Shown here one piece after another: positions 844-51,120 of a DNA stretch of 64,000 nucleotides; positions within the stretch are counted from its first letter, which is position 1, and each line of letters opens with the position of its first letter. This DNA is from Eledone cirrhosa (lineage: Eukaryota), in NCBI GenBank assembly GCA_964016885.1, contig OZ024741.1, positions 235,724,001 through 235,788,000 on the forward strand, given 5' to 3'. Made by a program: the position numbers and the translations under genes. The notes below the pieces were generated by a model. It ran no database searches and was not told the origin of the DNA. It saw nothing but the letters and a program-made list of their open reading frames with translations.

Positions 844-928
844 TACATACATACATTCACACATACATACATTCACACATACATACATACATACATACAT
901 ACATACATACATACATACATACATACAT
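844..928. repeat. (CATA)n microsatellite at the 5' junction of element A
   Basis: Directly visible; the array runs into CATACAT|GAGAGCTACTGG. Confidence 0.95.
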
Positions 929-3321
929 GAGAGCTACTGGAGATCTGTATGGGAAACGGATGACGGATTCAACAGACAAGCTAATTGGCTAAAAGAACTG
1001 GAACAGGACTACTGCCAACATGTCCAGACAAAACAATATGACATAGATGGGTCAATACTGGAAACAGCTCTACAGAAAATGTCGAATAGGAAATCGCCAG
1101 GCCCAGACCTCATTACAGGATACTGGTTGAAGAATTTCACTTTCTAGCGGCAAGATCTCATACGGCTGTTTACAGAAACCATTAAGGGCACACAAGAACT
1201 GCCCAGATGGTTATCAACTGCCTCTACTCTCCTCATTCCCCAAAATAGCCAAACCACCCTTGCTAAAAATTACCGCCCAATTGCCTGCCAAAACATCATG
1301 TATAAATTATATACTGGGTGCCTTAACCTGTTCTTACAGGATCACTGTGCTACCAACAACATCATAACACCTGAGCAAGCTGGTGGAAAGAGGGAGGTGT
1401 GGGGTTGCATAGATCACCTACTAACTAACAAAATGATTCAGGAAAAAACAACAAAGAATCGCAGAAACATGACTGTCGTGTGGCTGGACTATCAAAAAGC
1501 ATTTGATAGTGTACCTCATGGGTGGATTGTTAAGGCTTTATAGTTAGCTAAAGTCCCACAACCATTGGTAGCTGCTGTTGAACGCCTGACCAAGAACTGG
1601 TACACCAGTTTGATCCTTAGAGGTGAGAAGGAGCAGGTTAAGACTGATAAGATACATTACCAGAAGGGCATCTTTCAGGGTGATAGCTTGTCAGTGCTAC
1701 TCCTCGTTCTCTCACTGAATCCACTATCTTACCTACTCAGGAAACAAGGTCGACAAAGAAGTGGAACCAGAAGTATCTCCCATCTTTTCTTTGTTGATGA
1801 CCTGAAGTTGTATGGGCCAAATATCAATGACATCAAGAAACAATTGGACCTCATTACACAATTTTCAACCGACATCAAAATGAAATTTGGTGAGTCCAAG
1901 TGTGCATATTTGGCAGTAAAACGTGGAAGAGCTGTGCCCTCCTCTAGAAATCTAGAGATGAACGGCCTGACAATACAACCTCTGCAGTCAGGTGACAACT
2001 ACAGATATCTTGGACAGGATGAGAATGTCAGATATGATGGACCCATAAATAAGGAGAGAACCAGAACTGAATACCTCAGAAGAGTAAAGAAAATATGGTC
2101 AGCAGAACTGTCAGCATACAACAAATACATTGCCCACAATACTTATGCTGTGCCAATTCTAACGCCAACATTTGGCCTACTGAACTGGTCATTGCAAGAA
2201 CTAAGTGAGATGGATGTTAGAACTCGAAAACTTCTCAGTGTTACTGGGAACTTTAACATCAATGGTGATGTGGATAGGCTATACTTCTCACGCAAGGAAG
2301 GTGGCCGGGGTCTAAAATCAATATTAACAACATATGAGACCCGGATAGTGACACTGAAGCAACACCTTCAACAGAGGAAAAAGGTTGGCAACCATCTTGC
2401 CCAGGTTTATGACCATGAAAAAAGAAATATCATTAGAATAGCGACTGATCTGGAGGAGAGATATGGAATAAAGCCCGATATAAATCTCTCACCCAGAGAA
2501 ATCGGAAGATCCTATTCAATGTTCAAACAAGAAAAAAAAATTGACCAATTTACAGAAAAAGTTGTGCATGGATACTTGAGGCGTAAAACACAGACCATAG
2601 AGGGGATAAACCACTCAAAAAGCCTGGCATGGAGTTCCGACAAGTTTATGACATCACACCTTGAGGGATATCTCTATGCAATACAGGAACAAGAACTCCC
2701 TACCAAATATCTGCTGCACAAAAGAGGAGGGCCAGCAGCTGACAATAAATGTAGGCTATGTAAAACAAAGATCGAGGATGTAAGCCACATTGTTGCCAGC
2801 TGCGAAAGAATGTCATCTCGCTACTACCTCCCCATGAGACACGATGGGATAGCTAGAACTATCTGGAACGCACTTCGGAAAACAAAATCAACAACAAACG
2901 AGGAAGAATATATTGAGACAGATGGCACTAAGGAATACTGGTGGAACCTGAAAATAAAAACTGCCACCAAATTAAAGCACAACCGGCCTGATATTGTAGT
3001 TTGGGACCACACATTGAAAACGTGTTCTGTTGTGGAGATCAGCTGCCCACTTGTGTAAACGTTGTCAGAAAAATACAGGAGAAGGAGGACATCTACGGAC
3101 CATTGATGAGGAGTTTACAAATCCAGTATCCAAGATACACCTTTAGCTTCATACCCATCATTATTGGTGCTGCGGGTTATATACCAACCCGCTTGGACCA
3201 AAGTATGACTGAACTTGGATTTGCGGACAAAAAGCGCAGCTCCCTAATTCATAGTCTACAAATGGCTGCGATAGCTGGCACCTTCAAAATTTGCAAAACA
3301 TTCTTGCGATTCAAGGGATGA
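929..3321 (+). pseudogene. Disrupted RT + zinc knuckle + restriction-like endonuclease ORF of family A copy 1
   Basis: ORF pieces 1298-1543, 1565-3058 and 3001-3321 align to the open frame in copy 2. In-frame TAG stops at ~1145 and 1541, and a 1-nt deletion near 3054. Confidence 0.9.
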
Positions 3322-49245: not shown

Positions 49246-51120
49246 TGTATGTATGTATGTATGTATGTATGTATGTATGTATGTATGTATGTATGTATGT
49301 ATGTATGTATGTATGTATATATGTATAAATTAATAAAAGAAGAGGAAAGGAACCACATGCGTCACAGGTGATACTATAATATTGCCAACAAGTACAAGAC
49401 TTCATGGTCGTTGGCTGTCGAAATGGACGTATACAGTTGTGACCTCTCCTGATAGTATTGCTGGTTCATCCGGAGTCACAAGGTCTGGATACTTATATAG
49501 CCCCCTCTCTCATGTCATGCACTCACACATATATATACAATAGATATATATGCAACTCCTTAGTAGCTATCAGAGCTGTACTCCCACCACAAAACTACTA
49601 TCACCACAAAATCATGACTTCATACTCTCCACCAGCCCCCCAGTTATCACTTCCTGAACACAGCTGCCTTGGGACATGACATTCTCCTCCCCCTATCTCC
49701 TCCCCAAAGGACAAAGAGGGCTCGTCAATTAAGTAATTGACTTGTAGTCTCCCTAGTATTTGTGTCACGATAAAATGTACCAAGTACACAGAACATCTTG
49801 CTACACAAACCATGCCAAAAGAGTTGAGGTAACTCTTCAGTTATTTCACAGACATGAAAATATCTCTAGTGCTGTGTAAAGTGGTTTACATTAAGAGCAT
49901 CTAGTTGAGAGCATTCTACAGTTGTGTAAAGGACACAACAAACTCCATATTGTTGGTGGCTGGATAAAATACAGCCACCACACTCTGTAAAGTAGTTGGT
50001 GGTAGGAAAGGCATCGAACAATAGAAAAATTGCTAAACAGGATTGGGAAGGTGTCGAGGGTCTGTTAACATACCTTGTGCTGGTGCCATGATAAAATGTA
50101 CCTAGTACATTCTGCAAAGTGCAAGAACATAGGTGAGTGAGATCTAAGTCCCTAGACATCTCTGAGGCCTGTGGTTATGACTCAATGATGACTTGGTCTG
50201 TGATGACTTGGCCAACCTATTCTTGTATTGTAAAACAGCTGTTGAATGATGATGATGATACAGACACATACACACACATATATATATATATATATATATA
50301 TATATATATATATATATATATATATATATATATATCATCATCATTATCATCATTTAATAGCTGTTTTCCTTGCTAGTAATGGCTGGACATAAGCAAGTGT
50401 TGGATATATATAAACACACACACAAACGCATGCGTGTGTGTATCAGTTCCTTCCGTATCTCAAACAATGATAGAAACTGAATAAGCCTGTCTGTTTACAT
50501 GTGTGTATGTGTGTATATATGCGTCTATATGTTGGTTGTCTATGTGTTTATGTAAGTATTTACTGTCTATGAATCTGTGTGTGTTTGTTTGTTCTCTCTC
50601 TCTCTCTGTTTTATATATGTAATGTCTAAATGGTGTGGGTGTGACAATATCTTTCTGTCTTTGCAGACACATAGCCGGACATGAAGGTTGAGCTAACAGC
50701 ATTATCTCTTTGTCTCTTTGTCACTGTCTGTCTGTTTGTCTTGCGTCCGTCTGTTTGCCCGTTTGTCTGTTTGTCTGTCTCTGTTTCTGTGTCTATCTAC
50801 TGGTTGAAATTTTACTTATCTACATGTCTATCTGTCTCTTTCATTATATATATAATATATATATATATATATATATATATATATATATATATATATATAT
50901 ATATATATATATATATACTCTTTTACCTGTTTCAGCCATCCGGCTGAGGCCATGCTGGGGCACCGCATAGACATATATATATGTAGAAGTTCTATTTAAT
51001 TTGTTGGGATACAACAAGCAAATATTTTTATAACTGATATAAAGCACTCAACAAATGATTGGAGTAAAAATACGATATATTAACAAATGGAAACTATATT
51101 TATAAAACCATATTTATTTC

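Follow-up and report, generated by a model that had tools for sequence, protein, structure and literature searches.

A target preference for (CATA)n microsatellites in two R4/Dong-type retrotransposon families of Eledone cirrhosa

Introduction

The targeting of microsatellites by R4/Dong retrotransposons is established, and the closest described systems to the elements reported here are the Dong elements (Bombyx Dong, DongAg, DongBg and Darwinula Dong). In the accessible parts of the relevant papers these are described as single-ORF elements with an RT, a CCHC motif and an RLE that insert into a microsatellite (PMC3812793, PMC7998251, PMC3774820), the target of Dong being TAA (PMC3812793). Dong is listed as an APE element in the available text of PMC3812793, whereas PMC3774820 and PMC7998251, in the sections available, put it in the R4/RLE group. 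A Myb/SANT-like domain at the N-terminus is reported for Dong, with no N-terminal zinc finger in the section concerned (PMC7998251). Among the other elements covered by the accessible text of PMC3812793, Waldo targets ACAY, Mino AC, Kibi TC and Koshi TTC. The ACAY target of Waldo (WaldoAg1, WaldoAg2 and WaldoFs1, of the R1 clade) includes (ACAT)n, which is the same repeat as (CATA)n (PMC3812793). Microsatellite specificity is also described for elements with an RLE, namely Togen, which in fish enters (TG)n and is placed near NeSL/HERO, and for microsatellite-specific HERO families (PMC4640811, in the excerpt available). Dong-R4 LINEs are reported to be expanded and recently active in cephalopods, with five families and 1129 recent insertions in O. 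vulgaris, in the available portions of four papers (PMC13282606, PMC8967140, PMC9115989, PMC10294476). No target sequence was found stated in the portions of this cephalopod literature that were available, and the word 'target' is absent from the accessible text of PMC13282606.

Two families of Eledone cirrhosa, F1 and F2, resemble Dong in their single ORF, RT, CCHC and RLE and in having a microsatellite target, but the target is CATA in F1 and F2 and TAA in Dong. They resemble Togen and the microsatellite-specific HERO families in combining an RLE with a microsatellite target, and they share their repeat with Waldo, from which they differ in carrying an RLE in place of an APE. The use of one repeat by F1/F2 and by Waldo is a convergence of unrelated nucleases. 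The initial annotation of this DNA had known of no description of the tetranucleotide specificity, which stands for the RLE class, since no RLE element on CATA was found in the literature searched (literature other than Repbase, Dfam, Fell 2025 and Kojima and Fujiwara 2003/2004), but does not stand for the repeat, ACAY being already known for the APE-type Waldo. What is new is the use of CATA by the RLE class; the repeat class itself is a known target, and no new kind of system is involved. Orthologues of F1 and F2 may well be among the reported cephalopod Dong-R4 LINEs, and a landing place for this abundant cephalopod LINE class is now indicated.

Results and Discussion

Organization of the window

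The window, a stretch of 64,000 nucleotides of contig OZ024741.1 (positions 235,724,001 to 235,788,000), contains two copies each of F1 (A and A') and F2 (B and B'). The left neighbour of the first array is an S3-like non-coding RTE-related short element in TATG polarity (418..843, minus strand), of which positions 590-796 showed 73% similarity to S1 and to the 5' region of RTE in a sequence comparison, and whose 3' end, judged by eye, resembles the ends of S1 and S2 (elements described below). The upstream part of the (CATA)n target array (844..928, plus strand) contains CATTCACA variants and is followed by F1 copy A (929..3401, plus strand). Copy A is 5'-truncated, spanning F1 nt 1555 to the end, and is 99.5% identical to an intact F1 copy; its ORF is interrupted, the longest open stretch being 1544-3058. 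A 12-nt CAAA/CATA spacer, a remnant of the target array (3402..3413, plus strand), separates copy A from the 5'-truncated F2 copy B (3414..3843, plus strand; F2 nt 3665 to the end), which runs into the downstream part of the (CATA)n array (3844..4034, plus strand), where the CATTCACA variant of 844-928 recurs. S1, a 602-nt non-coding element with an RTE-like 5' region, follows in TATG polarity (4035..4636, minus strand), tail-to-tail with copy B, and the (CATA)n array extends past it (4637..4903, plus strand).

The other two copies lie on the minus strand. S2, a bipartite RTE LINE derivative in TATG polarity (45575..46064, plus strand), consists of a 5' UTR part (45609-46016) and a 3' tip (46014-46064), and a CATA spacer of three units (46065..46076, minus strand) is common to its 3' end and that of F2 copy B' (46077..~47210, minus strand). 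Copy B' is 5'-truncated at about F2 nt 2980, continues to the F2 end and runs into the three units at 46076-46065; an ORF stretch at 46306-47220 contains the CCHC and RLE motifs. F1 copy A' (47321..49244, minus strand) is 5'-truncated (F1 nt 2106 to the end), retains an open frame of 613 aa with RT, CCHC and RLE, and is preceded by an upstream (CATA)n target array (49245..49326, minus strand). A' and B' are separated by one CATAC unit and an internal F1 fragment of 97 nt (47227..47320, minus strand): the 3' side of A' meets the one CATAC unit alone (47320-47316), after which comes the 97-nt fragment joined to B'. The 5' end of B' is therefore not in CATA, which weakens the evidence from the window. 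All seven ends proposed to lie at (CATA)n, four 3' and three 5', were found, with the earlier coordinates right to within 1-2 nt, and the single polarity relative to CATA claimed for the window copies holds in all four.

Structure and classification of F1 and F2

The F1 and F2 proteins share 51% identity over 862 aligned residues. Full-length F1 is ~4.0 kb with a single ORF of 1169 aa and made up 11 of the 35 fetched matches; the complete ORF was found in 4 of 20 long F1 loci (L032, L033, L034 and the 2 residues shorter L043). F2 is ~4.1 kb, and its reference copy, L124, carries a frameshift and was used without repair. Pfam identified RVT_1 and zf-RVT in the F1 ORF, which further contains a CCHC knuckle (C980-x2-C-x8-H-x4-C) and a PD..E..K motif with PD at 1059-1060 and E and K downstream. 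The AlphaFold model had a pLDDT of 84 and its best structural matches were R2 proteins. The Exo_endo_phos (APE) family is absent from F1 and F2, and the close homologues carry PF00078 only and bear no family names. Argonauta is the source of the closest named homologue. F1 and F2 thus have the features of R4/Dong elements, a single ORF with RT followed by CCHC and RLE, and lack an APE, N-terminal zinc fingers and a protease. An identity with Waldo (R1 clade, APE) was ruled out by the RLE-type single ORF lacking Exo_endo_phos, and Dong in the strict sense, with its (TAA)n target, was ruled out by the CATA flanks.

Residues 1-100 gave no Pfam match, and no Cys-based finger is seen in the N-terminal sequence. 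Residues about 20-75 were modelled as three helices with a pLDDT of 80, and the model matched many Myb/SANT domains, the best being Zeste with a Z of 6.1 (rmsd 2.5, 64 aligned; a Z below 8 is at the level that the tool calls common). Further Myb/SANT-type matches were to GT-1, TRF1, Sap1 and Tbf1, each weak singly, and Pfam and PDB profile searches with the N-terminal domain returned nothing significant and no Myb family. The model thus predicts a Myb/SANT-like fold for F1 residues about 20-75, a putative counterpart of the Dong domain, and the weak matches are in line with the Myb-like domain that the available text of PMC7998251 reports for R4/Dong. A region homologous to the N-terminal domain is also present in F3, a third family described below. 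The predicted domain is preceded by a basic arm, R-x-N-R-x-Y, in 11 of 11 rows of the F1/F2 clade and 0 of 8 other rows (alignment A1), and this clade-specific arm is, from the alignment, a candidate target determinant. An HDV-like 5' ribozyme has been shown for R4 and Dong (PMC3774820, in the part available); a descriptor for such ribozymes, applied with no positive control and with the 5' end of F3 placed wrongly, gave no match in F1, F2 or the related loci L233 and L234, and an Rfam search returned repeat-driven miRNA noise only.

Genome-wide analysis of flanking sequences

The 3.0 Gb genome was searched with internal queries that stopped before the junction, the F2 query being the ORF end; an earlier query with the F2 3' UTR, which is simple-repeat-like, had given no match. 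The first look gave 1189 candidates for F1 and 762 for F2, figures that are not copy numbers, and 40 of each were scored, with 35 of the 40 listed F1 matches and all 40 listed F2 matches fetched. Using at least two CATA in the next 22 nt as the measure, the 3' end ran into CATA in 34/35 F1 copies and in all 37 F2 copies with an intact 3' end (3 of the 40 had none), a total of 71/72 scored copies. At the 5' side a broad measure (at least three CATA in the preceding 45 nt) and a strict one spanning 16 nt were used. CATA preceded the 5' end in 33/34 F1 copies by the broad and 30/34 by the strict measure, and in 33/40 and 28/40 F2 copies, respectively. Both families together gave 66/74 by the broad measure, the exceptions being 7/40 F2 and 1/34 F1 copies, compared with a background of 1.67% of positions (0.81% strict) in 40 evenly spaced 10-kb regions. 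In these 400 kb there were 714 TA, 149 CA and 95 CATA arrays, making TA arrays 7.5-fold more numerous than CATA arrays. TATG polarity was seen in 0/74 of the query-selected copies, and 0/74 had a run of pure TA or CA at a distance of 4 nt or less from the 5' end; the nearest exception is an F2 copy, L066, which starts 7 nt past a pure TA run.

A wider set of 61 F1 and 78 F2 copies, which includes neighbours in the fetched flanks and is biased towards clusters, was assembled after dropping matches with an identity of <84%, matches shorter than 60 nt, and those F2 matches that lay wholly in the repeat-like 3' UTR. In this set 45/57 F1 and 52/74 F2 copies followed CATA by the strict measure, truncation occurred at 44 different points in F1 and 63 in F2, and reversed (TATG) polarity was found in 0/131. 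The best 40 F1 matches were all 100% identical to the 200-nt query, which together with the complete ORFs indicates that the pattern reflects recent insertion.

Random insertion followed by passive build-up in repeat-rich regions, proposed for Drosophila Waldo-A/B in the accessible part of PMC3812793, would be consistent with the clustering of copies with other elements, as 21 of 115 R4 3' ends have an S1, S2 or RTE end within 150 nt. It cannot yield 0/131 reversed copies, a fixed 3' register, or the presence of the pattern in copies that are 99.5-100% alike, and it is refuted by polarity and register, so that we regard it as highly improbable. The CATA target preference is real and strongly supported. 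The targeting of pre-existing (CATA)n in a fixed polarity, suggested by the initial annotation from the window, is thus borne out across the genome by the flanks; the outcome that it had named as fatal, 5' flanks mostly devoid of CATA, is the reverse of what the 66/74 copies show, and none of the 74 starts directly at a pure run of the more abundant TA or CA.

Insertion junctions and the age of the arrays

At the 3' junction the element ends in A and is followed by ACATA. In the 3' logo, which was anchored on the first CA, a choice that by itself sets these two columns, A-C-A-T-A is nearly invariant, and the sequence then drifts towards the local array type. Because of this drift, at most about five bases past the element can be RNA-derived. 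The junction differed from the commonest 11-nt junction word in 22/55 F1 and 16/65 F2 copies.

The near-invariance of these first 5 nt would be explained if read-through transcripts carried a CATA tail and the RNA, rather than the protein, passed on the target. A loosely specific nuclease would then nick DNA of alternating pyrimidines and purines, with extension limited to primers able to pair with the tail; the relative L234, which lies beside (CTTA)n, could represent a switch of tail. With so many junctions off the commonest 11-nt word the pairing would be short, and 5-nt matches occur genome-wide, yet 66/74 copies lie in multi-unit arrays and 0 directly in TA arrays. Since only a short stretch would pair and the sites are arrays of several units, guidance by an RNA tail is disfavoured and considered unlikely, although flanks in the genome do not by themselves tell recognition by the protein from pairing with the RNA tail.

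The flanks on the two sides of each insertion were compared in the 59 of 99 copies with arrays of at least 24 nt on both sides. Upstream and downstream flanks shared variant 6-mers with a Jaccard value of 0.258, compared with 0.108 +/- 0.018 when shuffled, and 0 of 2000 shuffles reached the observed value. The window agrees, since CATTCACA units occur in both 844-928 and 3844-4034. The rare variants common to both flanks indicate that the arrays existed before the insertions and are a target, not a tail. A CATA tail encoded by the element and later expanded, with no targeting, would account for all 3' ends starting alike, and RTE elements are known to make microsatellite tails (PMC2887409, PMC9115989, in the sections available). 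Such a tail would not place arrays in front of 5' ends at >100 different truncation points, nor give locus-specific variants common to both flanks; it is refuted by the 5' flank counts and these shared variants, and is the least probable of the explanations considered.

The 5' joins were analysed in 80 truncated copies with an identity of at least 93%. They use 1-4 nt of microhomology, and microhomology of at least 2 nt was found in 27 of 44 clean joins, compared with about 18% by chance. Extra or variant bases were present at 26 of the 80 joins, and 10 had no adjacent array. A TSD search of 110 copies gave 11 informative matches compared with 7.3 +/- 2.2 in shuffles, which is not above shuffled pairing. 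The fixed register proposed from the window accordingly applies to the 3' junction; at the 5' junction the register varies across the genome, with microhomology joins.

Proposed insertion mechanism

F1 and F2 are very probably two non-LTR families with the R4/Dong architecture whose target is pre-existing (CATA)n, entered in a single polarity and with a single register at the 3' end, likely through one protein that binds several units and nicks the TATG strand. By analogy with R2 and R4 biology, the protein would bind several CATA units and the bottom (TATG) strand would be nicked at the A|C step, or one base before. This nick would provide the primer for reverse transcription, which would start at the 3' end of the RNA (target-primed), and a variable second nick in the top strand would be followed by joining of the 5' end through microhomology. 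In R2, according to the available part of PMC5035012, bottom-strand cleavage is strict and top-strand cleavage variable. The predicted Myb-like domain and the clade-specific basic arm would together act as the reader of the repeat. The endonuclease itself may carry the specificity, as had initially been supposed, but the Myb-like domain at the N-terminus is no less likely to determine it (PMC7998251, in the text available).

RTE-type elements on the opposite strand

TRAS and SART are R1-clade APE elements that enter one telomeric repeat from opposite strands. A similar arrangement of two element classes on one repeat was found here, but TRAS and SART are both APE elements on a telomeric repeat, whereas an RLE and an APE class meet on dispersed microsatellites in this genome. 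The arrays that house F1 and F2 also contain S1 and S2, which lie in TATG polarity; over 30 loci of each, the 3' end is constant and the point of 5' truncation varies. S2 consists of the 5' UTR and the last 51 nt of L221, a LINE of ~4 kb with Exo_endo_phos and RVT_1 (Pfam) that ends in TATG repeats and is TATG-flanked, and which we take from its N-terminal motifs to be an RTE element. L221 and S2 show the features of RTE elements: APE then RT, one long reading region, a microsatellite 3' end and bipartite derivatives. S1 resembles RTE in its 5' region only, and an autonomous partner of S1 was looked for and not found. S1 is abundant, with nine 3' ends in 400 kb, and is less strict in its site, often lying in TA-rich arrays. 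In the control regions, 6 of 22 arrays touch any of these elements, so most arrays were not visibly made by these elements. Two other assignments were rejected: S1 and S2 are not the R4 5' UTR, as full-length F1 and F2 start otherwise and S1 and S2 are truncated at the opposite end, and S2 is not a Penelope-type hammerhead element, being an RTE derivative.

Related elements and the origin of the CATA target

F3, a third R4-type family in this species, leads into AAT repeats at all 20 loci of the set, so the TAA target in this genome is held by F3 and not by F1 or F2. F3 shares 30-31% identity with F1 and F2 and forms a separate clade with the lepidopteran protein P0025. The F1/F2 clade has a support of 99-100, adjoins the clade of F3 and P0025 and lies apart from the protease-bearing outgroup, in quick and FastTree trees built with no named R4, Dong or Rex6 references, one of the trees leaving out four short or redundant rows and a second outgroup. 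F1 and F2 are not each other's closest relatives in the tree.

One metagenome scan gave six related loci, four of them with visible ends. L233, on a metagenome contig, is 45% identical to F1 and 49% to F2; CATA flanks it on either side, and both polarity and register agree with those of F1 and F2. L234, which is sister to F2, has (CTTA)n at its 5' side and no 3' array, L235 has no more than two CATA units in its 3' region, and L237 has no CATA within its contig. With L233 as the one clean case, the CATA target is likely to be older than this genome and its lineage wider. It may tentatively be proposed that an old R4-type sub-lineage, present beyond cephalopods, left the TAA of Dong for tetranucleotides (CATA in F1, F2 and L233, and in L234 perhaps CTTA) through changes in its Myb-like reader and its basic arm, and that in this genome the sub-lineage and an RTE LINE use the same arrays, each from its own strand, and go on providing landing sites for one another.

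The change of target in RLE retrotransposons is an open question that bears on their use in gene insertion. One genome here offers intact, recently active R4-type proteins on two repeats, CATA and TAA, and with L234 on a possible one-base variant, CTTA, comparisons of domains become directly testable. If the proposed reading is true, the F1 protein, young and intact, would represent a natural integrase specific for a tetranucleotide, and F1 compared with F3 and L234 would form a minimal system for how RLE elements change target. As a separate observation of presence only, loose CATA ends were seen behind the F1 3' end in contigs of four other sequencing runs.

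R4-type families and their insertions

The two F1 copies at L027 and L028, both on C1 and separated by 30 kb, have an identical truncation point and near-identical flanks. This pair represents a segmental duplication or a haplotype duplicate, which makes one of the counted F1 copies non-independent. In the window, at 47210-47320 (-), the 5'-truncated F2 copy B' is linked by a short duplicated stretch to a 97-nt internal fragment of F1. This join possibly records a template switch between F1 and F2 RNAs within one insertion, or possibly a rearrangement at a later time.

In the metagenome contig L234, which carries a sister of F2, the start of the element is preceded by a (CTTA)n array (420-480). 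A one-base change of target is possible, seen in a single low-coverage copy that lacks a 3' array. The third R4 family, F3, has a TAA target and an intact frame of 1141 aa, and further R4-like C-terminal pieces lie immediately upstream of its copies. F3 and these pieces are located at L155:731-1271, L229:2296-5718 and in the first 1 kb of L224, L225 and L232.

RTE-type elements

The LINE at L221:331-4324, assigned to the RTE type from its N-terminal motifs, is accompanied by three or more derivatives without coding capacity (S1, S2 and S3), which are located in the window at 4035-4636 (-), 45575-46064 (+), 418-843 (-) and 108-251 (-). The LINE and these derivatives occupy TATG/TA arrays, where their polarity is the reverse of that shown by the R4 families; the density of S1 is about 1 copy per 45 kb.

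Other features of the window

A 231-aa frame at 51779-52474 (-), for which Pfam gave no match, resembles a Penelope-type element in its C-terminal region. Fragments of other LINEs were located at 57707-58519 (-), with a Pfam match to RVT_1, and at 60653-61147 (-) and 60966-61517 (+), which overlap on opposite strands. The 8-kb degenerate (CAC)-rich satellite at 11080-19057 has higher-order periods of 14, 127 and 128 bp, and the stretch at 62400-63450 is rich in G+C with a coding-like composition.
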